A stretch of 55,126 bases of DNA from a virus (Duplodnaviria > Caudoviricetes): positions 1 through 55,126 of the IMG/VR virus record IMGVR_UViG_3300048672_000495. One strand, given 5' to 3'. This document shows positions 1-40,900 of the stretch, in pieces (positions within the stretch are counted from its first letter, which is position 1; every line of letters begins with the position of its first letter). The notes below the pieces were generated by a model, which was not told the origin of the DNA, searched no databases, and saw nothing but the letters and a program-made list of their open reading frames with translations. Position numbers and translations under genes: made by a program.

Positions 1-969
1 ATAGTTATCTATATCTATAAAACCCTGCGTCATAAATGTAGATACTAGATTATCACTTAGATTAATATCTAATAATGTATTATTAACTATATCTCTACTA
101 CTAAATGTATATAAAGCTCCTACTGTAGTATTGGAAGAATTATAGTGCATCTCTACTACAGAACTATCATCAATAGTATTTTCTACTGCTATGTTGGTAA
201 CTATATTATTTCCACCATCAACATATTTTGTACTACCTATTGTAGCAAATGCAGTTAAATTAGTATTTATAGAGTATTTAGCTGATATACCATCATAATT
301 TGATTGCATTCCATGGGCAGCATATTGTCTTCCAATACTTAATCCATATCCTCTATAAGTATCATCAACAGATGCAAACAATAAAGATGTTTTATATTTA
401 TTTTTACTATTATATCTACTATCTGTTAAACTATATGCATCTGATAATCTTGCTCTAAAATTATAAGTATATTCATCTTTTTTAATAGTTGTAGAGTTAC
501 TAAAACTATTGGCTAATGCTTTTGTATACCTATCACTATATAAATAACTAGATATACTAGAAGAAGTACTAGTACTGTCAATTACTCTTGGTAAACTATT
601 TTTTGACTCTACTTCTGGACGTTCTAATTTTGATTCTAATTCTTTTATTCTTTGTGTAATATTACTATTATACACTTCTTCTGGATAATCATTTAAGTAT
701 AATTGATACTCAATTTTAGCTCTAGCATAATTACCTAGATTTTCTAGAGTAACTGCGATCAATAATTGGGCTCGTTTAGATACGTTTGACTTTGGCATTA
801 ACAAAATCGCGTTCAATAGCTCGATGGCAGAATCAAAATCCTTCTGAACTAGAAAGATTTTTGCTTCTGCCATCAATTCTTGACTTGTTTTGTTGTTTGT
901 TACTTGTGGTGTAGCTGTACTATTTAAACTTAATAATAATAAAACTATGTAGAGATATTTATATTTCAT
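1..969 (-). CDS. Secreted TPR-domain protein with probable outer-membrane beta-barrel C-terminus (partial, runs off left edge)
   Basis: Not in the ORF track because it is truncated. Hand translation from ATG at 969 (RBS TGGAGA): MKYKYLYIVLLLLSLNSTA signal peptide, TPR-like AIELLNAILLMPKSNVSKRAQLLIAVTLENLGNYARAKIEYQLYLNDYP, then alternating beta-strand-like sequence (e.g. YRGYGLSIGRQ, YDGISAKY). Confidence 0.7.
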   Translation of the reverse strand, partial: MKYKYLYIVLLLLSLNSTATPQVTNNKTSQELMAEAKIFLVQKDFDSAIELLNAILLMPKSNVSKRAQLLIAVTLENLGNYARAKIEYQLYLNDYPEEVYNSNITQRIKELESKLERPEVESKNSLPRVIDSTSTSSSISSYLYSDRYTKALANSFSNSTTIKKDEYTYNFRARLSDAYSLTDSRYNSKNKYKTSLLFASVDDTYRGYGLSIGRQYAAHGMQSNYDGISAKYSINTNLTAFATIGSTKYVDGGNNIVTNIAVENTIDDSSVVEMHYNSSNTTVGALYTFSSRDIVNNTLLDINLSDNLVSTFMTQGFIDIDNY

Positions 970-984
970 TTCTCCACAATAAAT

Positions 985-1073
985 TGGTCGGAGTAGGAGG
1001 ATTCGAACCTCCGGGGCTTTTATACCCTCGGTTCCAAGCCGAGAACGCTACCAGGCTACGTGATTACACTCCG
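985..1073 (-). tRNA. trnP: tRNA-Pro(UGG), atypical (extra connector nt, 14-nt variable arm)
   Basis: CGGAGTG/TACTCCG acceptor stem, A-CCA end, CTCGG-CTTGGAA-CCGAG anticodon arm, GGAGG-TTCGAAT-CCTCC T arm. Confidence 0.85.
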
Positions 1074-1074
1074 A

Positions 1075-1266
1075 TTAATCGTAATAATTACCAACAGGAC
1101 CAGAGGTAAGAATAACCTCATCACCTTTTGCTAACTGAATTTTTGCATTATGTCTATAAGCACGTTCGTCGTGCTTCATCATGAATTTACCACCCTCACA
1201 ATGTTTTCCCCACTGGCATTGGCGGCAAGAACAAGATTTAGGAGTTTGCTTAGTATTAGTATCCAT
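1075..1266 (-). CDS. hypothetical protein (Cys-rich N-terminus)
   Basis: 63-aa ORF, GGAGA RBS, coupled to upstream ORF (TAATG overlap). Confidence 0.6.
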   Translation of the reverse strand: MDTNTKQTPKSCSCRQCQWGKHCEGGKFMMKHDERAYRHNAKIQLAKGDEVILTSGPVGNYYD

Positions 1267-1463
1267 TATATCTCCAAAGGAGTTATCTTTTTTATAATGT
1301 GGGACCTATACATTTTAGGTCCTATTCGTTTTAATTGTATCTCAACTTCTGTAATAAACTTTAATCTAAGTCTATTATCTTTGGTTAAGTCAAAACCCAA
1401 ACTTTTATAATACTCTACAGCATCTTCCATAGTTTGGAAAATCACTTCTTTGTTATAAGGCAT
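1266..1463 (-). CDS. hypothetical protein
   Basis: 65-aa ORF with AAGGGGA RBS. Confidence 0.55.
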   Translation of the reverse strand: MPYNKEVIFQTMEDAVEYYKSLGFDLTKDNRLRLKFITEVEIQLKRIGPKMYRSHIIKKITPLEI

Positions 1464-1812
1464 GATTCCCCTTAAAGTTCACTCCTATAAGTAGGATGGT
1501 TACCTACTTACTGGGCTAAACTCTAACTCTAGCAATTAATAGCGGAGGTGGTTACTCGTTGCAACAAGCCACTACGTCACTTTAAGCGTACAAATTCTAA
1601 CGCACTATTAACTGTGTTAGGTAATAGATAACCCTAACGCCCCTTATTGACTAGTCCATAGAGCAAAATATTATGCATCAAGGATCGGGTTTATTACTGA
1701 TATGGGGCAGTACTACCCATACGTTGTAATCACGTGTTTTGCGAGATTCATCACCCGCTTTCTAGTTGTAATTAGACTACACGCTATCCTAGTATTACGT
1801 GCTTGAATTTTT

Positions 1813-1896
1813 TGGTACCCAAGAAGAGACTCGAACTCTTAATCCTCGCGGCGGTGGCTTCTAAGACCACAGTGTATACCATTCCACCACTTGGGC
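1813..1896 (-). tRNA. trnL: tRNA-Leu(UAG)
   Basis: GCCCAAG/CTTGGGT acceptor, anticodon loop CTTAGAA, long variable arm, TTCGAGT T loop, ACCA end. Confidence 0.93.
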
Positions 1897-1903
1897 ATAT
1901 TCT

Positions 1904-2080
1904 TATTAAACAGCAGCCTATTCATCACTTTATTATTGAATAGCATTCATATGTTAAACAACTAATTGCGTTAAGTTGTGTGCACCATCAGTGATATGTT
2001 GTTTTTGTACCGTCGTACTGGTATGCGCCTGCGCCTGTGAGGACTCGAACCCCAACTACCCCACATACTGCTGATTAATA
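1904..2080 (-). ncRNA. stem-closed small RNA candidate containing a T-arm-like hairpin
   Basis: Ends TATTAA-a-CAGCAG / CTGCTG-a-TTAATA are complementary; internal TGGGG-TTCGAGT-CCTCA on minus strand. Confidence 0.45.
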
Positions 2081-2085
2081 AAAAC

Positions 2086-2135
2086 ATCCTGCTTACTAGC
2101 GTACAGGTCGATCTCTTTCCATCGAAGGTGGCTAT
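2086..2135 (-). ncRNA. GUAA two-hairpin motif, copy 1
   Basis: minus: GCCACCT-TCGAT..ATCGA-CCTG tacgcta GTAAG CAGG-AT. Confidence 0.5.
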
Positions 2136-2202
2136 ATCACAGTTTAGCTACTGACTTGTCATCTTTACCCTAGGAAGTGCTACAAGCATGCACTATTATA
2201 AA

Positions 2203-2303
2203 ACTAGCTGTCTACTACTGTTCCATTAAAGGTAAGACTTAGTATAATTCGTCCCAGTTCCACATCTTTTTAACACAAGTCCTGTGGTTGCTTGTGAGCT
2301 AGT
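2203..2303 (-). ncRNA. stem-closed small RNA candidate
   Basis: ACTAGCT/AGCTAGT terminal inverted repeat directly 3' of the tRNA-Ile-like gene. Confidence 0.4.
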
Positions 2304-2307
2304 ATAT

Positions 2308-2408
2308 TGGTACCAGGTACTGGAATCGAACCAGTGTTCGCCGCCTTATCTAGACGGTGCTTAAGAGTTTATAAGGCTCCCTCATAGGCCAACATTAGCA
2401 AACCTGGC
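2308..2408 (-). tRNA. tRNA-Ile(UAU)-like, 101 nt, with extra anticodon-like arm (GAU)
   Basis: GCCAGGT/ACCTGGT acceptor + ACCA; loop CTTATAA; extra hairpin CCGTC-TAGATAA-GGCGG; ACTGG-TTCGATT-CCAGT T arm. Confidence 0.75.
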
Positions 2409-2417
2409 ATAAATCAA

Positions 2418-2535
2418 ATATTGAATAGTACAGGTCGTGGTAGTTCTAATACACCCAGTTGACGCTGTTTTTTGCCATCCGTCAAAATGACCGCACAGTT
2501 ACTCTTTATATTCGTGCGCCTATACTATTCAATAT
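2418..2535 (-). ncRNA. stem-closed small RNA candidate (13-bp perfect terminal stem)
   Basis: ATATTGAATAGTA (2418-2430) / TACTATTCAATAT (2523-2535); immediately downstream of promoter 2558-2586. Confidence 0.6.
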
Positions 2536-2557
2536 GTAATCTTCCCATCGAATACAT

Positions 2558-2586
2558 ATTATACACCAAAGATTGAATAAAATCAA
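2558..2586 (-). promoter_or_regulatory. sigma70-type strong promoter
   Basis: TTGATT-17-TATAAT on minus strand. Confidence 0.85.
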
Positions 2587-2722
2587 GCCTAAAATTCTTG
2601 GCCTTCTGGCCACCCGCAAATCATTATAGTAATGTATTTAGCGATAGTGTTAATACCCATAGCAATAAAATATATTGCTAGAAATGCCAGAAACCAGTGT
2701 TGATGCCAAAAATCCCACATTG

Positions 2723-3040
2723 TCATGTTAGTAGTGTTCCAAATAGTTGTTTATGAGTAATAATCCATTTACCTACTGCTGCACCAAATAAAGCTCCAAC
2801 TGATCCAACTGTGAAGTCTTTAAATGATGGTGTATGTTTGTCTGGGTGCATTGCATCAAATATTTCTTTTGTAGCAGCTGAACCTACTCCGGTAGAGAAA
2901 CCCATTTCAGCGTCATCTGTTAACACAGTTACTATCAATGCTATTACAAATCCAGCGATTAAATGAAGTATTTTATCAATACCCCACCACTTATCAGTAG
3001 ATTGTAATATCTGTAGTAACATGCTCGATAATTTTGGCAT
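2723..3040 (-). CDS. VanZ/YfiM-like membrane protein
   Basis: DKILHLIAG..KEIFD..SFKDF motifs, hydrophobic segments, GGAGAG RBS. Confidence 0.6.
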   Translation of the reverse strand: MPKLSSMLLQILQSTDKWWGIDKILHLIAGFVIALIVTVLTDDAEMGFSTGVGSAATKEIFDAMHPDKHTPSFKDFTVGSVGALFGAAVGKWIITHKQLFGTLLT

Positions 3041-3057
3041 AGGCTCTCCAATAATAA

Positions 3058-3105
3058 GTCCCGGTTACTCGATCCGGGAACACTACTAAAGGCGGTGTTA
3101 GCTAT
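3058..3105 (-). ncRNA. GUAA two-hairpin motif, copy 2
   Basis: minus: AGCT-AACAC..GTGTT-CCCGG atcga GTAA CCGGG-AC. Confidence 0.5.
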
Positions 3106-3445
3106 AGCCCCAAATCATTCTACTAGCCCGTACGTCAGATTTGGAATTGAGTACGTGACGATGCGTTTACCTTCTAACGCCAACCTACCATGCTAAGTTT
3201 ACTAACAGCACATGGATTTTCCCACATCTAATCTGCACATTATACTGATCTCTTTGAACCAGTATTTGTCGCCCCATTGCAGTCTGAAGCATGTCCTTTA
3301 TATGGCGGACATTTCCATTATTGGTTCCGTCGTTCTGGACCTCGGAGGAACCACTACCCGAGGGAGATGTATCTGGTCGGAGCATTCCAGATTTAGCGTC
3401 TTGCGATCCTCCTAACAGTGTCGGCCTTAGCTTTCAGCCCACCGC
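3106..3445 (-). ncRNA. ~340-nt multi-hairpin, pseudoknotted ncRNA candidate
   Basis: No credible ORF; several hairpins and two loop-downstream pairings (3347-3353 with 3322-3328; 3138-3144 with 3110-3116). Confidence 0.5.
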
Positions 3446-3451
3446 TTTACA

Positions 3452-3847
3452 TTACTTTCTACAAAAGAAAATTGAATCTGTGTAATACTTAGTAAGATCA
3501 GTAGCTGGTCCAACATACATATACATGTTATTGGTATCGTATGTTCCAATAGTCTCAGCCTTTACACCACCAGGCAAAAAGTCTGTATACATTGGATGTT
3601 CTTCAAACTTCCATACCTTATCATTGTAGACAAAGGTAGCTTTGATTCCTTGAAAATCCACAACTGCTGTTGCACGAACTTCTTCAAAAATCATGTCAAT
3701 AGTGAAGTTAACTCCACTAAGTACACAATTATATTTACCATTGTGTGCAGCATAATTATATGCTGGAGGGGCTGTAGGACCACTGTCACCACCACCACCA
3801 CAAGCTGTAAGAACTGCCAGTGCTAGAATACTAAGAATCTTTTTCAT
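3452..3847 (-). CDS. lipoprotein
   Basis: MKKILSILALAVLTAC lipobox followed by GGGGDSG linker. Confidence 0.8.
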   Translation of the reverse strand: MKKILSILALAVLTACGGGGDSGPTAPPAYNYAAHNGKYNCVLSGVNFTIDMIFEEVRATAVVDFQGIKATFVYNDKVWKFEEHPMYTDFLPGGVKAETIGTYDTNNMYMYVGPATDLTKYYTDSIFFCRK

Positions 3848-3875
3848 ATTACCTTTGTTAGTTTATTTTAGTGAA

Positions 3876-3946
3876 ATGGGCCAGCGGTCCGGTCTCCCGC
3901 ATTGAAGTGTATATACACAGCTACTCACGATTGTATTATGACCCAT
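3876..3946 (-). ncRNA. stem-closed small RNA candidate
   Basis: ATGGGCCA / TGACCCAT terminal complementarity. Confidence 0.35.
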
Positions 3947-4060
3947 AGTAGAATACACATCTTGCTTATGTGGCTTTAGGGCACGAAAGCAATCGCGACC
4001 CATAACTTGATTGAAGTATGGAAAACCATACTTCCTACCACAGATTATGTACTCTACTAT
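3945..4060 (-). ncRNA. stem-closed small RNA candidate
   Basis: ATAGTAGAATACA / TGTACTCTACTAT terminal stem (one G-U on minus strand); internal GAAGTATGG-AAAA-CCATACTTC hairpin. Confidence 0.55.
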
Positions 4061-4062
4061 AA

Positions 4063-4116
4063 GTCCCGCTTACTCTTTGCAGGGTCGGAACACTAGCCCT
4101 CTCCGACAGCTTGGGC
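4063..4116 (-). ncRNA. GUAA two-hairpin motif, copy 3
   Basis: minus: GCCCAAGCT-GTCGGA..TCCGAC-CCTGC aaaga GTAA GCGGG-AC. Confidence 0.5.
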
Positions 4117-4180
4117 ACACATCACTTAGTTCGATCCGTAGCTTAGATGTGCAAATGAATCACCTACGGCTTCTGAATTA

Positions 4181-4240
4181 ATCCCGGTTACCAAACTTCC
4201 GGGTTGCTCTAGATTTAAGTATACTTAAATCGGCAAGGCT
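4181..4240 (-). ncRNA. GUAA two-hairpin motif, copy 4
   Basis: minus: GAGCC-TTGC..GATTTAAGTATACTTAAATC..GCAA-CCCGG aagtttg GTAA CCGGG-AT. Confidence 0.5.
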
Positions 4241-4288
4241 CACGTTTCAATGAGAATCCTAGATCACATCCATCTAGTAGGGTTCTTT

Positions 4289-4573
4289 TTAAAGCTGCTT
4301 CTTCTTAATGCGTTCTACGATACCATCAATAAAAGCTTCGTCCTTTATAAAGGAAACTGCTTCAAGTGCGGAAAGTTTTGCCTTACCTGAAACCTCATAC
4401 TTATAGTCACGAAGTTCTTCACTAATAGCCTTTTCAACAGCAATTCTATGGTACTTTATAAACCATTCTGATTTTTTTACTTCTTCTACGATTTGAGCAG
4501 CAATTAATCTTGCCTCTATACGCGGTGGAGACTCAGGAATTTCAAGATACTTGCGAAGAAACTTTTTTAGCAT
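4289..4573 (-). CDS. hypothetical protein
   Basis: 94-aa ORF in gene orientation of region. Confidence 0.6.
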   Translation of the reverse strand: MLKKFLRKYLEIPESPPRIEARLIAAQIVEEVKKSEWFIKYHRIAVEKAISEELRDYKYEVSGKAKLSALEAVSFIKDEAFIDGIVERIKKKQL

Positions 4574-4593
4574 TTTATTATTAGTTAGTTGTT

Positions 4594-4679
4594 TGGTGGT
4601 CCATCAAGGTAACGATCCTCCTGTCCCGATGGGAAACGGGGTTACAGCCCGCGCACTCTCCTTAAGTGTCTAATGAACC
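4594..4679 (-). tRNA. trnY: tRNA-Tyr(GUA)
   Basis: GGTTCAT/ATGGACC acceptor, loop CTGTAAC, long variable arm, ACCA; non-canonical T loop ATCGTTA. Confidence 0.85.
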
Positions 4680-4689
4680 AATATTAAAA

Positions 4690-5414
4690 TATAGTAGCTA
4701 ATCGGCCATGCCCTGCTCCGGTTTACCGGCTACAGCTTCCCTCTTTCAAGTTTCTCCGATCGGTCCCCCAATCCCTAACTTATGCTTTGGGCTCTAAGGG
4801 TTTCTCTTACTACTATAAGTATTTTCTGAAGGGCCCGGACGGTTATTTGGGGCTCGGTCCCATACATATGCACGTTAGTCTTATATACTTTTAAATATAA
4901 GGTGTGTTCTGGAAAGGAGATAGTGGCAATTGTTTACGCGGTTGTCCCGTATATCAGAAAATATATTAAAGTATAACTAATACGACAGCATTGCCGCAAT
5001 GACTACCTTTTCAGTATGCCAGGATATCACAATTTAACATTCCTGCCGAGCTTGCGGGTCGGGGTCTGTGCGTGATTGCATAGGGCACTGTTAGTTATAC
5101 TTTAATATAAAAATGGGTCTACGAGTCCAATTGTATAGCTAATTCACAATTACGTAGTCTAGTCACGCCTCCACTTATCGTCAATCGGTATCGGAGCTTA
5201 TCCCGAATCCCAATCTATTGTAGCTTCATCGAACGCCGCTGACATACCGATCAGCTTCACCCATTAAGATTAAATAGTTCCTGGCCAGGCTAGATAATTT
5301 TCTCACTTGCTTCCGCCTACTAGTGACAAACAGGGGCAGAAGTATACGACTTCCGCGGCCTATGTCTCGTTCCCATTGTCTTGTATCCAATTATCTTACT
5401 ATTTAATCTTAATG
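4690..5414 (-). ncRNA. tandem array of five abutting stem-closed small RNAs (4690-4817, 4820-4963, 4962-5109, 5112-5265, 5262-5414)
   Basis: Each ~130-155-nt unit is bounded by its own inverted repeat (8, 10, 19, 7 and 17 bp); no ORFs; lies between promoter 5488-5516 and tRNA-Tyr. Confidence 0.65.
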
Positions 5415-5467
5415 ATCCAGCTTACTTGATACTGGGCTAATAATTTGTGGCTATTAGCAGTGCGCCA
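5415..5467 (-). ncRNA. GUAA two-hairpin motif, copy 5
   Basis: minus: GGCGCACT-GCTAATA..TATTAGC-CCAG tatcaa GTAAG CTGG-AT. Confidence 0.5.
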
Positions 5468-5487
5468 TTTCTCACTTCAGAATATAT

Positions 5488-5516
5488 ATTATAATCCAAA
5501 ATACTTCGCAATTCAA
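5488..5516 (-). promoter_or_regulatory. sigma70-type promoter driving RNA array
   Basis: TTGAAT-17-TATAAT. Confidence 0.85.
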
Positions 5517-5523
5517 GCTTAAA

Positions 5524-5928
5524 TTAATACATGTGAACAGCAACTATGTGTACCGTTACCGCAATAATCATCAGTATTACGAATGGTTTATGATAAATAT
5601 GCCAATGTACAAACATTATAACATACTTATCATGTAGATGGCCCATAGTATGTATTACTTTATTATAAAGATACCTACCATATACACCACTTATAGCCAC
5701 TATCATTAATGATATGAACGCTATTGTAGCATTCAGACTACCAAAATATAATCTAGTATGAGCAATAACTATAAAAGGAGTTATTGCTCCTATAAACATA
5801 TGAAGATGGAACCATAAACGAATGTTACCACCAATCCAGGGAAAATTCTTTCTAACGTGGTACAATAGTAGTATTAGTATTAGAAATCCCGAAAATATCC
5901 CTGTTTGGTATGAGTAACTATTGTTCAT
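5524..5928 (-). CDS. His-rich 4-TM membrane protein, cytochrome b/ferric-reductase-like (multiheme-cytochrome-cluster inner membrane protein type)
   Basis: WFHLHMFIG..AH, SGVYGRYLY, WHIYHKPF..VHIVAVHMY: paired His in TM helices typical of heme-b ligation. Confidence 0.7.
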   Translation of the reverse strand: MNNSYSYQTGIFSGFLILILLLYHVRKNFPWIGGNIRLWFHLHMFIGAITPFIVIAHTRLYFGSLNATIAFISLMIVAISGVYGRYLYNKVIHTMGHLHDKYVIMFVHWHIYHKPFVILMIIAVTVHIVAVHMY

Positions 5929-6109
5929 CCTTATACTTTTTTATTGCTTCCGCATCCAACGAACAATACACCCTAAATTTATCTTTTCCTGCTTCGTCAT
6001 AAAAAGCTTCAGCCATTTTTTCAAGTGACTCGAACTTTTCAGATGGAAGTGAGTAATATCTACTTAGGAACGCAGATACTAGAAATTCTTTGCTATAACC
6101 TGCTGCCAT
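5918..6109 (-). CDS. hypothetical protein
   Basis: ATG at 6109 with AAGGGA RBS downstream of promoter 6131-6159. Confidence 0.6.
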   Translation of the reverse strand: MAAGYSKEFLVSAFLSRYYSLPSEKFESLEKMAEAFYDEAGKDKFRVYCSLDAEAIKKYKDEQ

Positions 6110-6130
6110 AAAAATCCCTTTCAAGCCTTA

Positions 6131-6167: not shown

Positions 6168-6497
6168 TTACTTAGAAGCAGCAGATGCTGGTGGTTTAGC
6201 AGTTACAGCAGCCTTCTTCAATGAAGCACACTGTGAACGTTCAAACTTATCCTTCTTATATGATTCTTCTTTTGTTTGCCACTGCATGTTTTCAATGGCA
6301 TCTTTACCACCTGCACATAATGGAATTATGTGGTCTACCACAAATCCTGGACAGGTAGTTTTACTATGTTCTACTTTAGCTGGGCACGGATGAGTCTTTA
6401 CAAACTCTTTACGCACTTTAGCTGATCTAGTAGTAGCATCTACTGAGCTAATTAAACTTATTGCTAGTAGACATGCTACTAATAGACTCTTTTTCAT
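6168..6497 (-). CDS. HNH-family nuclease with N-terminal signal peptide
   Basis: MKKSLLVACLLAISLISSVDA; VVDHIIPLCAGGKDAIENMQWQ..KD motif. Confidence 0.75.
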   Translation of the reverse strand: MKKSLLVACLLAISLISSVDATTRSAKVRKEFVKTHPCPAKVEHSKTTCPGFVVDHIIPLCAGGKDAIENMQWQTKEESYKKDKFERSQCASLKKAAVTAKPPASAASK

Positions 6498-6604: not shown

Positions 6605-7438
6605 TCATAGCACTAGTGCCTCAATCTCATTAGTTCCGACATTGTCGGTTTTCCAAAACTTACCAGTCAATGGCTCTGTAACTGTAAGTCCAGCCCAACT
6701 GTGCCGATCTACAGCAAATGCCATAGTATCAATATTGGTTTGGCCGATTACTGTAGTTGGCATACGTACTGGTGTATGTCCACTAAAGATGTGTGACAGT
6801 TTATCATTAAAGAAATCTGTTACTGCATGTTTAGACAGAATCGCTTTGTGTAGAATACCATGTTGCTTACTAACTTCTTTTGCAAAAAGTTCCGCAAACA
6901 TTTCCCTACCCCACAAAAGCCCGTGCCCATCTCTACAAACACGACTAGCAATATCTTTAAAGTTAGTAACTAGACTTTCATCAGTAATAACTTCATCTTC
7001 TTTGCCAAGAATTTCAGCATGAATAACGTGAAATTTCTTTCCATTACTCATATTTACTGTAATTAGCCAAGGGAGTTTCTCTACTATTGGTAGAAGAAGG
7101 TCAACAACATCGTGTTTTTCTTCATCGTTCACAAATTCAAACCAGTTTCCACCGTTTCTGAACCACCAGGCACCAGTAGGTCCACCAGTTAGAAAGTCTT
7201 CCATTAGTTGTTCGTGGTTGCTTTTTACACAGTGAAACCAGGGTTCAAGCAGTAGACTCAAACACCTAAAACTGTGTGGGCCTCTATCAACTAGATCACC
7301 CACCGAAAACATACGATCTTTTTCAAAATCAAATCCTACGTGTCCCATAAACCCAACTAGCAGTTCATGTGATCCGTGTAGGTCCCCACACACAAAGTCT
7401 CTACCTTGAGTGTTTACATCAAACGTTTTTATCTTCAT
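6605..7438 (-). CDS. Ser/Thr protein phosphatase (lambda NinI/PphA-like metallophosphoesterase)
   Basis: GDLHG, GDLVDRG, SNHE, IHA, GHTP, IDT motifs. Confidence 0.9.
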   Translation of the reverse strand: MKIKTFDVNTQGRDFVCGDLHGSHELLVGFMGHVGFDFEKDRMFSVGDLVDRGPHSFRCLSLLLEPWFHCVKSNHEQLMEDFLTGGPTGAWWFRNGGNWFEFVNDEEKHDVVDLLLPIVEKLPWLITVNMSNGKKFHVIHAEILGKEDEVITDESLVTNFKDIASRVCRDGHGLLWGREMFAELFAKEVSKQHGILHKAILSKHAVTDFFNDKLSHIFSGHTPVRMPTTVIGQTNIDTMAFAVDRHSWAGLTVTEPLTGKFWKTDNVGTNEIEALVL

Positions 7439-8678: not shown

Positions 8679-8879
8679 TTAAGGTCCGTAAGCATCTAGA
8701 CAATACTTACAAATATCAAGTCCGTCTAAATCTTTATGCATTGACTTTTGCCATAGACCACAACAATTACATTGTTTGAGGTTAATTTCCAAGTCAGAAG
8801 TAAATTCTATCACACATTCACTACAACCTTCAAGTACAGTTTTTCTAGTGTTAAGTAGGGCTGACTCTAACGGTTTCAA
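8679..8879 (-). CDS. small Cys-rich (Zn-finger-like) protein
   Basis: CxxC x3; overlaps stop of upstream gene. Confidence 0.55.
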   Translation of the reverse strand: MKPLESALLNTRKTVLEGCSECVIEFTSDLEINLKQCNCCGLWQKSMHKDLDGLDICKYCLDAYGP

Positions 8880-9574
8880 CCTTTTTCCTCACGTTGCTCT
8901 AATTCTAATACTGCTAACAGATTCCAAATCATTTGAGCAAGATGCTTAGTATAAATACCATTTGGGCCATCATCATATACTTTACCAGATCCTAGCTGAA
9001 GCATATGCCTACCAAATGCATCCATATATCTATCTTTACCATCTGGTACAGTTAACCAACCATGCGCGGTATATTTCTTAGCTCCAGTAGTACCAACCTT
9101 AGCAACTTCTTCTAAAGCATTACTAAAATCACCTAGTACCAACCATGGACGCAACTTACCAGCATCAGCCTTCGATCCTGCTTCATTCAATGATTTGCCA
9201 TTAGGATCAGTCTCAATATATGTAATATTTTTAGGATCGTACGGAGTATGTGTTATAGTTGCACTACTAGCTTTAGGGTTATCAAGATGTATAACTCTTA
9301 CATAATTAGATCCTATAACTCCACCACAACTCATACTTGCAAGTTCTTCTGCAAATAATGGCTCAGCTACTTTTACTGGCTCAGGAAATGGCCATACAGC
9401 AGATTTACTCGCTTCTATTTCCTCATCAGGATAAGGCCAGGCCCAGTTATTTTCTGGTTTGCTAGTTGGGAAGGGCCATGGAAGTGAGGACTCATCCATA
9501 ATCGTAGGACGCACTACTTCTTTCTTACTAAATGCTTTTTTCCACAGTTGTTTTGCTTGAAAATCTTTTTTCAT
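8876..9574 (-). CDS. dATP/dGTP diphosphohydrolase (DUF5664-like) with N-terminal W-P-F-P repeats
   Basis: KADAGKLRPWLV..ALEEVAKVGTTGAKKY..W..RYMDAFGRH..HLAQMIWNLL. Confidence 0.75.
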   Translation of the reverse strand: MKKDFQAKQLWKKAFSKKEVVRPTIMDESSLPWPFPTSKPENNWAWPYPDEEIEASKSAVWPFPEPVKVAEPLFAEELASMSCGGVIGSNYVRVIHLDNPKASSATITHTPYDPKNITYIETDPNGKSLNEAGSKADAGKLRPWLVLGDFSNALEEVAKVGTTGAKKYTAHGWLTVPDGKDRYMDAFGRHMLQLGSGKVYDDGPNGIYTKHLAQMIWNLLAVLELEQREEKG

Positions 9575-10616: not shown

Positions 10617-10858
10617 AATCCTGCCAAAATTGCATTTATTTTAAGTTAGATGTTGCATCTAAGTACTATGGTGGATATGCACCTAGTCCGCATATTTGTA
10701 TGCATGAAGCTGCTAGATATATTTCACAAAGTATTATTTATGAAGAAGTGTTAAACTATACTTGTGAAGGTATGCGTCAAAAACACGGCGATTGTGGACC
10801 AGAAGCAAAACTATTTAAACCAAAACTTTTTTATAAACTAAAAACCCTATTATCATGA
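10613..10858 (+). CDS. Cys-rich hypothetical protein
   Basis: CQNC..C..C..R..CGPEAKLF pattern; ATGA coupling. Confidence 0.65.
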   Translation: MKSCQNCIYFKLDVASKYYGGYAPSPHICMHEAARYISQSIIYEEVLNYTCEGMRQKHGDCGPEAKLFKPKLFYKLKTLLS

Positions 10859-11628
10859 GAATCCTACTTTATAGTGATCTCCATACTGAATTTTGGAGAA
10901 AAGAAGCCGAATTGAAGCCCCTGCTTCAGCTTGGCAAGGCTTGTGTAACCGACTCTGTGCGTTGCGACGTTGTTGTGCTCGCAGGAGATATCGCGTCTGG
11001 TCGTACCAATACTAAGAAAGTTCTGAAGCAGTTTGCCAATGCATATGCACACGTTGTGTATGTGCCAGGTAATCACGAATATTATGGTTCTGATATTGCT
11101 ACTTTTGATGATATTGGTGAACTTCCTAGTAACGTTTACCTTCTTAATCCGGGTAAAATGAGTATTAGTGACCGTGATGGTGATATTGTTACCTTCATTG
11201 GGGCTACTCTGTGGACTAATTTTCATTATGATGTAGTTGCTGAAATGGCAGCCAAGGATATGATTACTGACTTTAGGCTTATTAAAAACTTTAAGCCTAC
11301 TCACGCAATTGAACTGTATCGTAAACATATCGACTACATTAAGCATATGTATGAAACCACTCCTGGTAAAAAGGTAATTGTTACCCACTTCCTTCCAGCC
11401 TATGAATGCATTTCTAGAAGGTTTAGGGATGGTAATCTACTTAATAAGTATTTTGCTAACGAACTAGATAACTGGATTGCTAATCTAAGCAATACTACTT
11501 GGCTATTTGGCCATACTCATGATTCTATGGATCTCACTCTAGGTGATACTCGTCTAGTATGTAATCCGTATGGATATATGGGTAGTGAAACTAACCGTGA
11601 ATTTACTGATAAGGTAATTGTTGTATGA
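10855..11628 (+). CDS. calcineurin-like metallophosphoesterase
   Basis: SDLH, AGDI, PGNHEYY, VTHFLP, FGHTH, NPYGY. Confidence 0.9.
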   Translation: MRILLYSDLHTEFWRKEAELKPLLQLGKACVTDSVRCDVVVLAGDIASGRTNTKKVLKQFANAYAHVVYVPGNHEYYGSDIATFDDIGELPSNVYLLNPGKMSISDRDGDIVTFIGATLWTNFHYDVVAEMAAKDMITDFRLIKNFKPTHAIELYRKHIDYIKHMYETTPGKKVIVTHFLPAYECISRRFRDGNLLNKYFANELDNWIANLSNTTWLFGHTHDSMDLTLGDTRLVCNPYGYMGSETNREFTDKVIVV

Positions 11629-24334: not shown

Positions 24335-25522
24335 ATGTACAAACCAAATGAGAAATTAAATGCTTTATTCGCGAAGGCTAGAAATTATAGAAAAAATACG
24401 CGTTTTGATAGAGCCTTGGAATATTACAATAGAGTACTAGGTTTACAAAAATGTAAAGAAGCATATCAAGAAATAGGATTAATTTACGTAGAGTTACATG
24501 ATTTAGATAAAGCTAAAGAATACTTCAATAAAGCTAATGATTCTAATATACCATATTTAAATGGAAAACATGTATCAAATGATCCTACATGCATACATAA
24601 TTTAGCTAGTATTGAATATATAATGTTCAATGATATAGAAGCTATGCGATTATACAAAATTGCGTATTCATTAGATCACAACAACTATGCTGCACTTTTA
24701 GGGTATGGTCAGAGTGGGATCAGACGATATTGTGAAGGTGATACTTCTATTGATCTTAAACAGATGTGGAAATATTACACATATAGGTTTATGGAGGGAG
24801 ATTTAACAATCTATCGCCCACACGATCTCTGGGATGGAATTACACCACACTTATCAGAAAGTATAGTCGTACTTCGCGATCAGGGTCAAGGTGATGCACT
24901 AATGTTTAGCAGATACTTACCTGAGCTACAAAAATACTTTAAAAAGATATATATGCAGGTAGCTCCTGAATTGGAGTGTTTATACGAAAATATATATGAT
25001 GCCAATAGTGATTGTAAATATGCTATACCAATTGGTAATTTACCCCAGTTATTAGATTATATTCCTGCTGGAGATTGGCTTGCTAATAGAAATATATATG
25101 AAAAGCATGATGGACTAAGAGTAGGTTGTGTATGGGGTGGTAATAATTTACACAAGAACCATAGTGATAGAGCCTGTCCTCCCTCATACTTTGATAATTT
25201 AGAATATGATAAATATAGTTTCGTACCTAGAGTTGGATATACGTTTTTGGAATGGAAAAACTGGGATGATACTATATATTGGTTAAATAAGTTAGACGTA
25301 GTTGTAACTGTTGACACTTCAATGGTACATATGTGTGGCTGTTTAGGTAAACCTTGTATCATGATAATGCCACTCATAAGTGGTGATTTCAGGTGGGGAC
25401 GCTCGGATAAAACTATTTGGTACTCAAGTGTTAATATTGTACATAATAATGATAGTTGGTCAGAAGCATTTAAAGAAGTAAGAAAGAGACTAGATGAATT
25501 TGCCAGTAAACACACCAGTTGA
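24335..25522 (+). CDS. TPR-repeat + GT-B (GT9-like) glycosyltransferase
   Basis: N-terminal TPRs; DQGQGDALMFSRY, GCVWGGN, LDVVVTVDTSMVHMCGCLGKP..DFRWG. Confidence 0.8.
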   Translation: MYKPNEKLNALFAKARNYRKNTRFDRALEYYNRVLGLQKCKEAYQEIGLIYVELHDLDKAKEYFNKANDSNIPYLNGKHVSNDPTCIHNLASIEYIMFNDIEAMRLYKIAYSLDHNNYAALLGYGQSGIRRYCEGDTSIDLKQMWKYYTYRFMEGDLTIYRPHDLWDGITPHLSESIVVLRDQGQGDALMFSRYLPELQKYFKKIYMQVAPELECLYENIYDANSDCKYAIPIGNLPQLLDYIPAGDWLANRNIYEKHDGLRVGCVWGGNNLHKNHSDRACPPSYFDNLEYDKYSFVPRVGYTFLEWKNWDDTIYWLNKLDVVVTVDTSMVHMCGCLGKPCIMIMPLISGDFRWGRSDKTIWYSSVNIVHNNDSWSEAFKEVRKRLDEFASKHTS

Positions 25523-25961
25523 AGTATTAGATATTTCACCAGAAGCACTAGAAGTTGCAAATTGCTACTTACAGACACAAAATTTAGACGCTGTTGCTAG
25601 TGAACTAGATATATCAAAAGAGTTAGTTACTCAAATTTTGTCGAAGAAAGAAGTAAAATCATATATAGATCATGTATTCTTTAATCTAGGATTTAATAAT
25701 AGATTCAAGATGCGTGCTGCGATGGATGCTATTATAAAGAAGAAGTTTCAGGAGCTAGAAGAAAGTGAAATGGGCTCAACTAAGGACATTGCAGAACTAT
25801 TAGCTTTAAGTCATAAAATGACAATGGATGAAATGAGTAGACAGATTGAGCTTGAGAAACTACAACAAGCAAATATAAAGAACCAAGTTAACGTACAGAT
25901 TAACGATGGTGGAACTAAATATAACACATTGATAGAAAAGTTGTTAAGCGGAGACATATGA
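25494..25961 (+). CDS. terS: terminase small subunit (T5-like)
   Basis: ISPEALEVANCYLQ..EVKSYIDHVF..GFNNR..STKDI..QIN; position near TerL. Confidence 0.8.
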   Translation: MNLPVNTPVEVLDISPEALEVANCYLQTQNLDAVASELDISKELVTQILSKKEVKSYIDHVFFNLGFNNRFKMRAAMDAIIKKKFQELEESEMGSTKDIAELLALSHKMTMDEMSRQIELEKLQQANIKNQVNVQINDGGTKYNTLIEKLLSGDI

Positions 25962-27160
25962 TAACTGAAGAAAACTATAAACTATTTCAACGTGGGCTAA
26001 AGTATTGTGAGAAGAACCCAGATAAGGCTATACCACTACTAAAACAGTTCTTAAAGGAGTGTGATTGTAAAGAGGCATGGTTAAACCTAGCAGTAGCATA
26101 TAAGCATAAAGGTAATTTAAAAGTAGCTGGAGAGTGCCTACTAAAAGCTAATGATGAAAAAATACCATACAGTGATGGCACATTTGCTAAAGCGTATCCT
26201 ACTGCATTGAATAACCTAGGACTAATTGCTCATAGCTTGGAAGATGATGCTACGGCTGAGCAGTTTTATAAGGCTTGCCTAGCTATCGAACCGTTAAATT
26301 ATGATTGCTTATGGAATCTTAGCGTAGTAAAGCTAAAGAACTATTGTAGCGATATGGGTGGTAACTTAAGCGAGTGCTGGAGGCTATACAACTATAGGTT
26401 CAAACGTACTGGAGCTGATCCACTAAAAAATGCTAAAGAAGATCTTAAGCTTTGGAATGGGCTTGATAAGGTTAAAAGTATAGTATGCTTAAGCGAACAA
26501 GGTATGGGTGACAGCATAATGTATGGTCGCTACCTTGAAAAACTAAAAGAATACTGTGACGAAGTTTGGATCCAATGTGATCCTAGCCTAAATTACATCT
26601 TCTCGGACTATAATACATGTGTTGATGTTAGGGATAGTGATGCTACTCATGGAATCCCAATCGGATCGCTAGGTAGCATAATGGACTATATACCTAGCTC
26701 ACCATGGCTTGCTGAGAAGCGAGTAGTTGAAGAACACTCAGGATTACGAATTGGATGTGTATGGGCTGGTAATAAGAAACATATTAATGATAAGAATAGA
26801 AGTATCACTCCGTTCTTTTTTAACAAATTAAGGAAACATGGCGAACTATGTACAATTGGTCCTGCAAGTGGTCCTGAACCTGGGTTTACTCATCTTGATG
26901 GTAACAGCTGGAAAGAAACTATTGAGAACCTGGGTAAGCTCGATTTAGTTATAACAGTAGATACATCTATAGCACATATGTGTGGATCATTGGGAATGCC
27001 GTGCTGGGTACTGATGCCACTAGTGGACACTGACTTTAGATGGGGTAATAGTACAATGGGGTTTAAGAATGTATGGTACCCTAGTATTAGTGTATTTAGA
27101 AATCCCGGTAACTGGATCGAAGTATTTAATAACGTTGAAAGAGCATTATGCGAAGTGTAA
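25958..27160 (+). CDS. TPR-repeat + GT-B (GT9-like) glycosyltransferase, paralog
   Basis: EQGMGDSIMYGRY, GCVWAGN, LDLVITVDTSIAHMCGSLGMP..DFRWG. Confidence 0.8.
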   Translation: MITEENYKLFQRGLKYCEKNPDKAIPLLKQFLKECDCKEAWLNLAVAYKHKGNLKVAGECLLKANDEKIPYSDGTFAKAYPTALNNLGLIAHSLEDDATAEQFYKACLAIEPLNYDCLWNLSVVKLKNYCSDMGGNLSECWRLYNYRFKRTGADPLKNAKEDLKLWNGLDKVKSIVCLSEQGMGDSIMYGRYLEKLKEYCDEVWIQCDPSLNYIFSDYNTCVDVRDSDATHGIPIGSLGSIMDYIPSSPWLAEKRVVEEHSGLRIGCVWAGNKKHINDKNRSITPFFFNKLRKHGELCTIGPASGPEPGFTHLDGNSWKETIENLGKLDLVITVDTSIAHMCGSLGMPCWVLMPLVDTDFRWGNSTMGFKNVWYPSISVFRNPGNWIEVFNNVERALCEV

Positions 27161-27855
27161 TTGGTAGGTACGGTGAAGTATGGTACTACGGTAAGGATCG
27201 CTTTATTGGTAGAGGCCTACATGCCTATGGAGAATTTAGTCACCAAGAGTGCATGAATATTTTAGCACTTGCACGGGAGGGTGATGGGGTTTGCCTTGAT
27301 ATAGGTGCTAATATGGGATGTATATCCCAAATGCTTGAGTACCATGGGATGACAGTTGTGGCCTTCGAGCCGCAGCCTGAGCTAATCAAAGTGCTAGAAA
27401 AGAACTTTAAAGGCTCTATTAAGAACTTTGCACTTGGCAGTGAAGAAAAGACTGAGGTAATGCCTAAGTATGACTATAGCTCAAATGGTAGTTTTGGTGA
27501 GGCTAGCTTAGGTACTAAAAGTGCACTAGGTAGTATTACTGTAGATGTTAAGAAACTAGATAATTTCTTCTTTGGTAAAATTGGATTCATGAAGATTGAC
27601 GTTGAAGGATATGAATTAGAAGTACTAAAGGGTGCTAGAGAGACTATTCTTAAATATAAGCCATTAATGTACATTGAAGATGACAGGGCTGAAAAAAGTC
27701 CTGCACTACATGCCTATCTAAGTGAGCTAGGATATATTTGTGAACTAGATGTAACTAAACTATATAATCCGGATAATTTCTTTAATAATTCTAAACGGAT
27801 TTGGGATAGAGATTATGTATCTCTTAATTTAATATGTAGGCCTAAGAAATGTTAA
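27148..27855 (+). CDS. FkbM-family SAM-dependent methyltransferase
   Basis: LDIGANMG, AFEPQ, MKIDVEGYELEVLKGA. Confidence 0.9.
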   Translation: MRSVIGRYGEVWYYGKDRFIGRGLHAYGEFSHQECMNILALAREGDGVCLDIGANMGCISQMLEYHGMTVVAFEPQPELIKVLEKNFKGSIKNFALGSEEKTEVMPKYDYSSNGSFGEASLGTKSALGSITVDVKKLDNFFFGKIGFMKIDVEGYELEVLKGARETILKYKPLMYIEDDRAEKSPALHAYLSELGYICELDVTKLYNPDNFFNNSKRIWDRDYVSLNLICRPKKC

Positions 27856-37984: not shown

Positions 37985-40900
37985 ATGGTAGATAAGACAG
38001 TTATTCCTGTAGAAGTAACCTCTAATGGTACTACGGATAATGAAATTAAAAAGGCAGATAAGTTATCGGCAGCTTATAAACTAGCTGCTGCTTCTGCTGC
38101 CTCTGTACGTACTCCCGCTGCTGTTGTTGCTGCTAAAGGTGGTGTAGCTAACGCTGCTGCTGCTAAACAAGGACAACAGGCTCAGGACTCTAATACTGCT
38201 CGTGGTATTGGTGGAATGACAGGTGCTGCAGGTAGAGATTTCGCCGCTCAAGCTCAAGGCTTAGGCGGACTTGTTCACGTCTATGCTACATTCGCTGCTA
38301 ACTTATTTGCTATTACTGCTGCATTCGGAGCACTATCAAAAGCAGCAGATACAACTAATATGATTAAGGGATTAGACCAACTAGGCGCAGCTAGTGGTCG
38401 TGGTCTTGGTAGTCTTGCTAAACAACTAACTGCTGTTACAGATGGAGCTATTTCATTAAGAGATGCTATGACAGCTACTGCACAAGCTAGTGCAGGTGGT
38501 ATGTCGGGTGAAAATATTCTAAGACTGGGTAAAGTAGCTAAACAAGCTTCACAGGCACTTGGTATTGATATGCCAAACGCTGTAAGTCGTTTAAGTCGCG
38601 GTATTACTAAACTAGAACCAGAATTATTAGATGAACTTGGTATTATGGTTCGTGTAGATCGTGCTAGTGAAGCTTATGCTTTAAAGCTAGGTAAGGCTAC
38701 ATCAGCACTAACAGATTTTGAAAAGCGTCAAGGTTTTGCTAATGCAGTACTAGAACAGGGTGAACAGAAATTCGGAGCAATTCAGCTCAATGCAAATCCT
38801 TATTCTAAGATTCTAGCAAGTACTGAAAATCTATTACAATCTGGACTAGAACTAGTTAATAAGTTTTTTGGTCCACTATTAGCTATTTTATCTACAAGTC
38901 CTACTGCACTGGCTACTGTGCTAGGTGGTATTGCAACTATACTTCTTAAGCAAGCTATACCAGCTATTGGTATGTTTAGACAAAATGCTAAGATAATGGC
39001 TGAAGAAGCTCATAAGAGAGTTGTACAACAAGTTAAAGATCAGCAAGAAGCAGCAGTTAGATCAGACGTTATAGCATCAACTGCTGCTGAAATTTCTTTC
39101 CAAAGAGAAAAGAATACAATAGAAAGAATTAGTAAATTAAAGAAAACTACTACTAATAAAGATATAGTTAGCGAAGCTTCTAGACAAACTATCAAAGGTG
39201 GAGTATTTGCTGCAAGTCCAGAACAGATGGCAGCACTTAAGAAAGAATCAGATATTCTTTTAGCTACTACTGATGATACGTTAAAGAAACAAGGAGAAAA
39301 ATTAGCTAAATATTATGCTTCAGCAGATAAATTAAGACAAGAAAATACAGCTAGAGGTGATGCTGCAGCGCAAGCTAATGAGCAAAGAGATAATAAATGG
39401 TATTCACATCAAGAACAGCTAACTAGAAATTTAGAGAAATTAAATAGAGCTTCTGCTAAAAGAATAGTACTATCTGGAGTAGCGGATACTGCTGCAACTT
39501 TAGGTCCTGCATATGCCTTTAAACAGTTAAGGGAAGAAGTAGGTAAACTAGATGCTGGCAAAGTATCTAAGGGATTTACTATGTTACAAGGTTCTATTAG
39601 CATAGCTACTTCAGCAGCAACAACTGCTATTAATGCATTTGGAGTATGGGCACAAGTAATAGGTTTAGTAGTAGCTGCAGTAGCTTTATTAGATGGCTGG
39701 CTTAGTACATCATCTAAACAAGCAGCAGAGTTTGCTACTTCAGTAGAGTCATTAAATGCTACATTTGATAATATAGGTCGTACATTAGAAGATATAGCTA
39801 GGAAACCATTATTACAACAATTAAGTGTTGAATCAGTTCAAGCTAAAGCTAATGCATTAGGTGAATTAAATGGTGCATTAAAAACTACTGTATTTAATTT
39901 TGGTAAATTACAAGAAGCCCAAAGTGGATGGGATAAGTTTTTTGATGGATTCTGGGATTTATTTGGAAAAGGTTCTGGCGATATACTTGCCAGAGGAATT
40001 TCTTCGTCTGTTGTAAATGCCTTTAAGGTAATGGATGAAGGTCCTGCTAAAGATGCAGCTAAAAAATCTCTACAAAATTTACTAGGTAAAGACATTGATT
40101 TTACTAATATCGATAATTTCAATGCAAAAATTAAAGATCTTGATAAATCTAAAATCGGAGAAATTGGTAAAAATATCTCTAGTATTTTAGATAAAGCTAA
40201 TAATCAAGCAGGTAACGCAGCAGCAGCCTTAACAGAGGCTAAAGCTGCTATGTCTAATGTAAACTTAGAATTTGATAAGTTAACTATAAGTGTTAAACTT
40301 ACTGATGAATTTACAAAGATGGGTACTGCTCTTAATGAAGCATCATTAAAGATTGGTACAGCCCTAAGAGATCCTATTAATGGGCTAGTTACTTTAAGAG
40401 ATTTAGCTGCGGATATGAAGACTATGTCTTTCCTACCAGCCGAAACATCTAATAGCTTAGCTAATTCTAGAAAAGAACTAGAGAAATTATCTATTGAATT
40501 ACAACTTGCTAGAAATAATCTTAGAGATATTAGTAATGAAAAAGTTAAACTAGCTAGCGTTAAAGGTGGTGGAAAAGTAGATTCTGTTGAATCCCAAGTA
40601 AGAGCAGCCCAAGCGCAGTTAGACTCTAGAAAAAATGAAGCTAAATCAGTATTAGTAGACTTAGAAGCAAAGAATAAGGATGCACTATCTAAGTGGGCAA
40701 AAGTAAGTATTGAAATATTCCAAAAAGGATTAGAATATTCTGAAAAAGGGTTAGCTAAATCTTTATCAGAAGCAGCTATTATTGCTGCTAAAGGATATAC
40801 AGATATAATTAAATCAGCTGGTGGGAATACCGCCGTACTAGATGCCTCATTACAAAATAAGACTATAGATTTACAAATTAGAGATTTGGAAGCTAGATAT

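Follow-up and report, generated by a model that had tools for sequence, protein, structure and literature searches.

Background

Porin-cytochrome conduits are the route by which Gram-negative bacteria exchange electrons with minerals, and those of the PCC3 type are widespread. Here we describe two genes of a tailed phage that resemble components of such a conduit. Both are located in a stretch of 55,126 nucleotides (the window), which is the entire IMG/VR record IMGVR_UViG_3300048672_000495 (linear, ~52% complete according to CheckV). The first is an open reading frame (ORF) that runs from position 969 to position 1 on the reverse strand and encodes the first two thirds or so of a TPR plus beta-barrel outer-membrane protein, and the second, at 5524-5928, encodes a small putative inner-membrane protein with two histidine motifs. 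With a probability of roughly 60%, we read them as the barrel and the minimal inner-membrane protein of a PCC3-type conduit, carried by the phage as an accessory (auxiliary metabolic) module.

A PCC3 cluster is made up of an inner-membrane protein, a periplasmic cytochrome with ~21-27 haems, an extracellular cytochrome with 10-35 or more haems, and a porin (PMC5566968; PMC10734462); a TPR domain is not mentioned in the consulted parts of these two papers. The inner-membrane proteins (~300 amino acids (aa), five helices) carry an SGXXG motif and two WX3HX13H motifs and are proposed to bind two b haems (PMC5566968). As far as the same source goes, PCC4 inner-membrane proteins have this motif signature as well, and the genes of shorter relatives with five helices immediately follow a multihaem cytochrome gene, in most cases with no porin gene present (PMC5566968).

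The barrel protein and its family

An ATG at position 969 opens a frame that reaches base 1 without a stop codon and encodes 323 aa (P0001); since the window is the whole IMG/VR record, the gene is truncated by the end of the contig. Searching 1.84 billion representative proteins with P0001 (phmmer), we found 391 proteins at E ≤1e-3, of which 43 reach E ≤1e-10; with so many matches, the likeness of P0001 to this barrel family is not due to chance. The best match, P0002 (572 aa, E 7.5e-27), is 33% identical, with residues 10-280 of P0001 aligned to residues 11-291. The relatives are metagenome proteins of about 510-1000 aa that share one plan, i.e. a signal peptide, sometimes an AMIN or a SPOR domain (seen via Pfam and via Atlas clusters, respectively), a TPR pair, and ~440 aa ending in G-x-R-x-D-F. 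The N-terminus of P0001, MKYKYLYIVLLLLSLNSTA, lines up with the signal peptides of the relatives at their A-x-A ends (read by eye, not by a predictor), the family motif GRQ...G..(F/Y)DG is found at residues 213-227, and the invariant residues of the barrel alignment (A84, P96, G213, G227 and G245) are all kept; beyond the TPR part the sequence is rich in N, S, T and Y. TPR matches of P0001 stay below the cut-offs both in Pfam (best TPR_6, 23.1 bits vs a cut-off of 26.3, E 1e-4) and in NCBIfam (BamD/YbgF type, E 1.2e-6), and the profile of the whole family matches TPR structures in the PDB at E 2.9e-10. Pfam searches with P0001 and ten relatives gave nothing beyond TPR and AMIN.

The AF2 model of P0002, built on a 53-row alignment (pLDDT 92.4, pTM 0.73), shows five helices (residues 30-116) followed by 22 strands (134-571) with a helical insert (357-396), and P0001 maps onto the five helices and strands 1-12. 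Residues 26-123 of the model superpose on BamD (Z 13.0, root-mean-square deviation (rmsd) 2.2, 97 residues aligned), and its barrel superposes best on the 22-strand TonB-dependent transporters (Z 17-18, rmsd 4.2-4.8, 360-390 aligned). Foldseek returned only generic barrels (TM ≤0.41), and the barrel has no sequence match in the PDB, where a profile search reached TPR proteins only. The sequence-only reading of the window had described a partial ORF with a signal peptide, a TPR pair and a beta-rich C-terminus, and this description is confirmed by the frame, by the position of the quoted TPR stretch (residues 67-96 of P0001) and by the helices and strands of the P0002 model.

Multihaem cytochromes beside the barrel genes

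The gene neighbourhoods of the relatives carry most of the functional argument. Multihaem cytochrome genes with 2-21 CxxCH motifs adjoin the barrel gene in 35 of the 36 loci that we examined, i.e. in 24/25 loci of a sample covering one bacterial order, 5/5 loci from metagenome-assembled genomes (MAGs) and 6/6 viral loci in which the barrel is visible. Scanning IMG/VR with the family alignment yielded four viral loci (L002-L005) whose barrel gene is overlapped by an ORF of ~170 aa with four CxxCH motifs and one Cx4CH motif; where the contig continues, this small cytochrome is followed by a 242-aa ORF with seven CxxCH motifs. Pfam places the cytochrome ORFs of these loci in the class III, cytochrome c3/c7 and paired-CXXCH families, and the seven-haem protein has no sequence match in the PDB better than E 0.27. 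A scan with the seven-haem protein added three viral contigs: L265 and L266 have the barrel, then 6+1 and then seven haem motifs, and the third begins inside the cytochrome. In the subfamily of the window barrel, a small cytochrome gene (five or seven haem motifs) comes after the barrel gene, which it overlaps or directly abuts, and a seven-haem cytochrome gene comes next.

Altogether, seven IMG/VR contigs from four samples (L002-L005 and L264-L266; 28-166 kb, 8-47% complete by CheckV) carry the cassette of barrel, five-haem and seven-haem genes. From the completeness estimates, their genomes would measure ~190-380 kb (jumbo size), and their two G+C classes (~40-42% and 54-56%) make different hosts probable. 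The large terminase (TerL) of the window has no match in four of the jumbo-size records, which are therefore not kin of the phage described here.

Cellular loci were collected with a degenerate pattern over species-representative genomes, which gave 90 stretches with five true relatives (tblastn). Four loci in Deltaproteobacteria MAGs have 11- to 21-haem ORFs beside the barrel; one of them (L104) shows the full PCC3 make-up, as it combines the barrel with ORFs of 21 and 11 haems and with a membrane protein of 340 aa in which the WX3HX13H motif occurs twice. In a Methylophilaceae MAG (L077/L096), by comparison, a seven-haem ORF precedes the barrel and a five-haem ORF overlaps its end. This is the sole chromosomal member that we found of the phage-type barrel subfamily, and the same MAG encodes a PCC3-type membrane protein on another contig. 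The Methylophilaceae locus (L102, G005:C4:1182000-1201999) is flanked by IS200-like and DDE transposase genes, with ammonium transporter and pilin genes adjoining; the transposases hint that the mini-cassette might be mobile in cells, too. We then took 401 genomes from the order of this MAG, 27 of which match the barrel, 25 of them strongly. An ORF with at least two CxxCH motifs lies within 1.5 kb in 24 of the 25 strong loci, and the exception is located at a contig start.

These neighbourhoods also bear on the possibility that the protein is a different TPR-barrel exporter (PgaA, BcsC, PelB, AlgK/AlgE-like, or a Slam- or BamD-related factor) whose link with cytochromes is incidental. The TPR-then-barrel architecture is common to those systems, the TPR part resembles BamD and YbgF, and AlgE is among the generic barrel fold matches (rank 13, TM 0.31). 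However, the barrel has no sequence match to those families in Pfam, NCBIfam or the PDB, the neighbours scanned against Pfam and PHROGs comprise cytochromes, transposases and phage genes but no polysaccharide synthesis genes, and cytochromes adjoin the barrel at nearly every locus. We consider an exporter highly improbable. The link between TPR-barrels and multihaem cytochromes provides a usable marker for finding such conduits.

Other searches gave no further members. Scans of the viral collection with P0001 and with P0005 (a close relative, see below), of genome contigs with alignment A3, and of metagenome contigs with A3 and P0004 yielded no confirmed relatives, PHROGs held no match to P0001, and word-index searches (near and longer lengths) found no relatives of it. 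Among 50,697 GenBank phage records there was no match by blastn of positions 1-1300 or by tblastn of P0001, the viral barrel P0020 or the seven-haem cytochrome.

The inner-membrane protein

The ORF at 5524-5928 reads W39x3H43x13H57, S80GxxG84 and W109x3H113x13H127 and ends in VHMY. It has no match in Pfam, and a word-index search returned only the query itself. The protein is 37% identical to the product of the ORF directly after the seven-haem gene in L003, and of the 401 order genomes 49 have homologues. Among the 25 barrel-bearing order genomes, 21 have the homologue on the contig and strand of the barrel, at a distance of 4-11 kb upstream; in the window the distance is ~4.5 kb. Both WX3HX13H motifs were found in all 30 loci examined, with the same 41-residue spacing to SGxxG, and ten residues are invariant in the alignment (A4): W39, H43, H57, S80, G81, G84, W109, H113, H127 and Y134. 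Missing from both phage versions are the N-terminal 50-100 residues and an insert of ~100 residues, which the cellular homologues have. A long cellular homologue weakly reaches the Pfam family Ni_hydr_CYTB (E 2.7e-4, below the cut-off). The protein was not found in records G001, G003 and G004 with a single-protein query, nor in G440-G442 with the A4 profile, all six records being fragments.

AF2 models the 134-aa protein as a bundle of four helices (pLDDT 92.9), in which the histidine pairs are borne by helices 2 and 4. The cytochrome b of bc1 complexes, the FRD domain and cytochrome b561/CybB likewise have two HX13H pairs, placed on two helices of a four-helix bundle. However, no sequence match is significant and no fold score rises above the helical-bundle background: Foldseek gave nothing at E ≤0.001 (E ≥0.34), and weak fold matches include 5oc0 (Z 11.6, rmsd 3.0, 127 aligned) and 1kqg_C (Z 10.0). 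It is therefore the motifs that point to haem, and from them we consider it probable that the protein binds two b haems.

Comparison with described conduits

The window shares with PCC3 a barrel homologous to those of clusters with PCC3 make-up (L104), a homologous inner-membrane protein with SGXXG and two WX3HX13H motifs like those of PCC3, and the placement of the gene for this protein upstream of the barrel on the same strand. It differs in the following respects. The 21-27-haem and 10-35-haem cytochromes are missing from the window, the relatives of its barrel pair with five- and seven-haem cytochromes instead, and the largest cytochrome beside a subfamily member on a viral contig has seven CxxCH motifs. 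The phage inner-membrane protein has 134 aa and four helices, as compared with ~300 aa and five helices, and the genes are carried by a phage. In a quick tree (LG+G4), moreover, the order-sample barrels form one clade, and four viral barrels (P0001, L002, L003 and L004), the Methylophilaceae barrel and the metagenome top matches form a separate sister clade (SH-aLRT 100).

The sequence-only reading had seen in the barrel a porin of multihaem-cytochrome clusters, specifically of the PCC3 type, and in the ORF at 5524-5928 a heme-b membrane protein, which together would be parts of an extracellular electron-transfer conduit. The neighbourhoods of the homologues bear out the link with cytochromes and the full set at L104 the PCC3 type, with the caveat that the window barrel belongs to the sister subfamily with five- to seven-haem cytochromes. 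The motifs and homology of the second protein, shared with inner-membrane proteins of PCC3 and PCC4, agree with the other half of the proposal, haem b itself being probable from the motifs, and the homologies of both proteins support the notion of conduit parts.

The nearest relative of P0001 in the tree, P0005, is of interest in itself. By our own reading, its N-terminus as called (GSNP) looks like a tRNA T-arm in translation, and its barrel is shorter, without the helical insert region in alignment A1. This suggests that a tRNA-then-barrel arrangement and a smaller barrel also occur in the closest kin of the window protein.

Like the window family, the MtrCAB, MtoAB and PioAB systems (6R2Q) combine a large outer-membrane barrel with adjacent multihaem cytochromes. 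MtrB (6r2q_B) superposes on the P0002 barrel with Z 15.2 (rmsd 6.6, 360 aligned), below the TonB-dependent barrels, and we found no sequence or Pfam relation to the window family. The MtrB barrel has 26 strands, whereas our model has 22. Furthermore, the window family has a periplasmic TPR domain, and the cytochromes of the relatives are c3/c7-like and not MtrA-type decahaems. The shorter PCC4-related proteins have the motif signature and a position after a cytochrome gene as in L003, but the phage protein has four helices and is accompanied by a barrel gene.

Viruses and extrachromosomal elements with respiratory cytochrome genes as auxiliary metabolism form another point of comparison. Borgs and Methanoperedens elements reportedly carry cytochromes, and amoC-phages carry a cytochrome of the NapC/NirT family (10.64898/2026.06.18.733297). 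These are, however, single host-like cytochromes or archaeal elements, and the consulted parts of the sources report no set of envelope-spanning barrel and inner-membrane protein. In the literature we found no report of a phage-encoded porin-cytochrome set. The phage-borne miniature relative of PCC3 is new; it would function as a porin-cytochrome conduit, and its sequence does not point to the Mtr type.

Phage context and alternative explanations

The assignment of the window to a phage, also made in the sequence-only reading, is well founded: genes for TerL, portal, protease-capsid, major tail and tape-measure proteins are all present, and the G+C content at third codon positions (GC3) of the barrel gene (0.139) falls within the range of the phage tail genes (0.131-0.148). 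The capsid gene is 30-39% identical to those of Salmonella phage fuchur, Providencia phage PSTCR5, Pectobacterium phage DU_PP_V and Vibrio phage VCPH, which are T5-like phages of 106-121 kb, and 60-85% identical to those of 306 IMG/VR contigs, among which several measure 100-104 kb and one has terminal repeats. Judged by its sequence, with the protease-capsid gene, relatives of 100-104 kb (terminal repeats in one of them), tRNAs (six genes in the window) and small ORFs, the phage is T5-like (Demerecviridae-type), about 105 kb in size and of freshwater origin. T5-like phages are virulent and do not integrate.

Several observations weigh against a conduit module in this phage. No ORF of the window has two or more CxxCH motifs. 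The gene order differs from that of L003, in which the membrane-protein gene comes after the cytochromes; in the window it is found upstream of the barrel, separated from it by 4.5 kb without cytochrome genes. None of 30 related phage records (five of them at least 90% complete) has the barrel, and none has the inner-membrane protein (window and G002 as positive controls); the two genes are therefore an accessory module that is not conserved in the lineage. P0001 is very divergent (at most 33-35% identical to any relative) and sits on a long branch beside P0005, a join that carries a long-branch warning. Cytochrome b561/CybB, FdnI and bc1 cytochrome b, although among the top weak fold matches of the inner-membrane protein (VIA Z 9.6-11.6), lie within the background of four-helix bundles. 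In the likely source run (X1), a contig of 381 bases on positions 17-397 has a word depth of 6, compared with 26.5 for a 15.6-kb phage contig starting at 2272, so that perhaps only part of the phage population has this end. The viral status of the jumbo-size contigs comes from the IMG/VR assignment and a few phage-like neighbours. Finally, PCC3 itself is functionally untested according to the consulted part of a recent study, in which its membrane component was upregulated in iron-oxidising Sideroxydans (10.1101/2025.02.27.639646).

The depth difference and the missing barrel in related phages could also mean that the first 969 bases are not phage DNA but the product of a mis-join at the contig end, or flanking cellular DNA, and that the barrel gene is bacterial. 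In keeping with this, the ORF is located at the extreme end of the contig, just past a tRNA-like gene, and positions 1-750 have a G+C content of 26-28% vs ~38% for the window. However, the low G+C content is due to the first codon positions, i.e. to the amino-acid make-up, and GC3 equals that of the tail genes. An independent freshwater-sediment run (X3) has contigs on 274-703, 911-1061, 1096-1244 and 3950-4000, one of which (911-1061) bridges the start of the barrel ORF and the tRNA; barrel gene, junction and neighbouring phage sequence are thus present at like depth (~2-4). The gene for the inner-membrane protein, which is linked to the barrel by function, lies within phage sequence and shares bases with a conserved phage gene, and between it and the barrel gene there is an ORF (2723-3040) with a homologue in the related phage G411. 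A flanking cellular origin also fits poorly with a non-integrating phage (affiliation taken from the capsid), and the T-arm-like start of P0005 hints at the same arrangement elsewhere. Two stretches (403-938 and 1073-1474) have no contig cover in X1, which is uninformative at ~83% of the run read and with all sampled words present in its index, and runs X2 and X6, with small word shares, added little. Taken together, we regard a mis-join or flanking cellular DNA as improbable.

Another explanation accepts the genes as genuine phage genes but sees no electron conduit here: they might be cassette leftovers without cytochromes, serve another use (outer-membrane remodelling, receptor masking or phage exclusion), or plug into PCC3 cytochromes of the host. 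Apart from the lack of a cytochrome gene in the window, the divergence of P0001 and the absence of both genes from the 30 related phages, this is favoured by the DNA between the two genes, which contains only small ORFs and tRNAs at the place where cellular PCC3 clusters keep their giant cytochromes. Against leftovers, the barrel and the inner-membrane protein have retained every residue that is invariant in their families (in the latter, four His, two Trp and SGxxG), which argues for selection on the original function, and the phage-like GC3 of the barrel suggests a long residence and not a decaying recent capture. Furthermore, the cytochrome genes of the viral relatives are located downstream of the barrel in six of six cases, which is exactly the side that is cut off in the window. 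We therefore consider this explanation unlikely, though by no means negligible.

A candidate miniature conduit

The cytochromes of this phage are out of sight, as no ORF of the window is multihaem and the contig breaks off within the barrel gene. Judging by synteny, cytochrome genes would rather likely follow the barrel left of position 1, beginning at its stop codon. In a viral relative, the fit of the partners could be modelled. A predicted complex of the L003 barrel with its small cytochrome and four haems scored 0.54 (best of three controls, 0.00), with at least 62% of the contacts agreeing between runs and a partner pLDDT of at least 60. In a calibration without ligands and without own alignments, 58 of 80 solved complexes passed the mark that we used for such scores, as did 2 of 110 mismatched pairs; scores of up to 0.60 include only 7 of the 80 solved complexes, yet both mismatches that passed. 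The model thus gives weak support to a binding of the small cytochrome by the L003 barrel.

For the PCC3-type conduit that we favour, one can envisage the following course of events. The module would be expressed during infection by the virulent T5-like phage. The inner-membrane protein would pass electrons to and from the quinone pool through its two b haems, small periplasmic multihaem cytochromes would relay them, and the barrel would sheathe one cytochrome so that electrons could cross the outer membrane; the TPR domain would dock the periplasmic partner. The cytochromes would be either encoded just past the contig end or supplied by the host.

More generally, we tentatively propose, at somewhat less than an even chance, that at least two kinds of tailed phages (the ~105-kb T5-like phage and several of jumbo size) carry self-contained miniature trans-envelope conduits. 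These would consist of the TPR-barrel, five- and seven-haem cytochromes and a di-haem-b membrane protein of 134-146 aa, and would be installed in the host envelope during infection in order to tap electrons from, or dump them on, partners outside the cell (Fe(II), Fe(III), humics). If this holds true, it would be without precedent as an auxiliary metabolic module for extracellular electron transfer, and no smaller PCC3-type system would be known. The reach of viral auxiliary metabolism would then include electron exchange with the outside of the cell, which would affect iron and carbon cycling in freshwater sediments, and the phage version (134-aa membrane protein, barrel of ~550 aa, two small cytochromes) would be the most tractable form for expression and structural work. 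Our data suggest that viruses may carry machinery that moves electrons across the envelope of their host cells.

The accessory region and other features of the phage

The features at the left end of the window are listed in Table 1. Two near-complete related phages are syntenic with the window from position 5918 rightwards, and the last 11 nt of the conserved gene at 5918-6124 overlap the start of the inner-membrane-protein gene. The two conduit genes would accordingly form an accessory cassette in a variable tRNA region, possibly present in only part of the population. The tRNA-Pro reaches 29.0 bits with the Rfam tRNA model, equal to the gathering score, in a small search and is absent from a 10-kb gathering scan; contigs of other organisms pile up at 985-1071 in the sequencing runs compared. 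Promoter-like sites are no commoner than in shuffles (25 vs 23.9).

Table 1. Features at the left end of the window, with positions counted from its first base.
Feature	Position	Strand	Basis or remark
N-terminal 323 aa of outer-membrane protein, PCC3-porin superfamily	1..969	-	homology; gene runs off contig end
First ~12 barrel strands, residues 131-323	1..579	-	mapped onto P0002 model
Periplasmic TPR-like helical domain, residues 29-114, 5 helices	628..885	-	mapped onto P0002 model
Signal peptide, residues 1-20	910..969	-	read from sequence and alignment
Accessory DNA between barrel and membrane-protein genes: small CxxCH-free ORFs, tRNA-Leu 1813-1896, lipoprotein-like ORF 3452-3847	970..5523	-	
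Atypical tRNA-Pro (UGG), 87 nt, 12-nt extra arm	985..1071	-	ARAGORN; 16 nt upstream of barrel gene
134-aa, 4-helix minimal PCC3 inner-membrane-protein homologue, probable di-haem-b protein	5524..5928	-	motifs, homology, AF2
Conserved phage gene	5918..6124	-	64% / 48% identical in related phages G411 / G413

Elsewhere in the window, a 2309-aa tape-measure-like protein (37985-44914, + strand) is long even for a siphovirus of ~105 kb and aligns to its relatives in parts only (32-33% identity). Two paralogous TPR proteins of ~400 aa (24335-25522 and 25958-27160, + strand), conserved in the related phage G411, and an FkbM-type methyltransferase (27148-27855) are encoded directly before the large terminase gene. 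The C-terminal 100 residues of a 232-aa protein (8876-9574, - strand) match the N-terminal domain of dATP/dGTP diphosphohydrolases (PF18909, E 3.7e-21; MazZ-like), a domain known from phages with modified bases; a PurZ-type gene was not among the ten further window ORFs scanned. Also in the left arm are two calcineurin-like metallophosphatases (6605-7438, - strand; 10855-11628, + strand), a secreted HNH-like protein (6168-6497) and another five tRNA genes, of which three are for tRNA-Arg, a layout that is similar to the tRNA region of T5-like phages.

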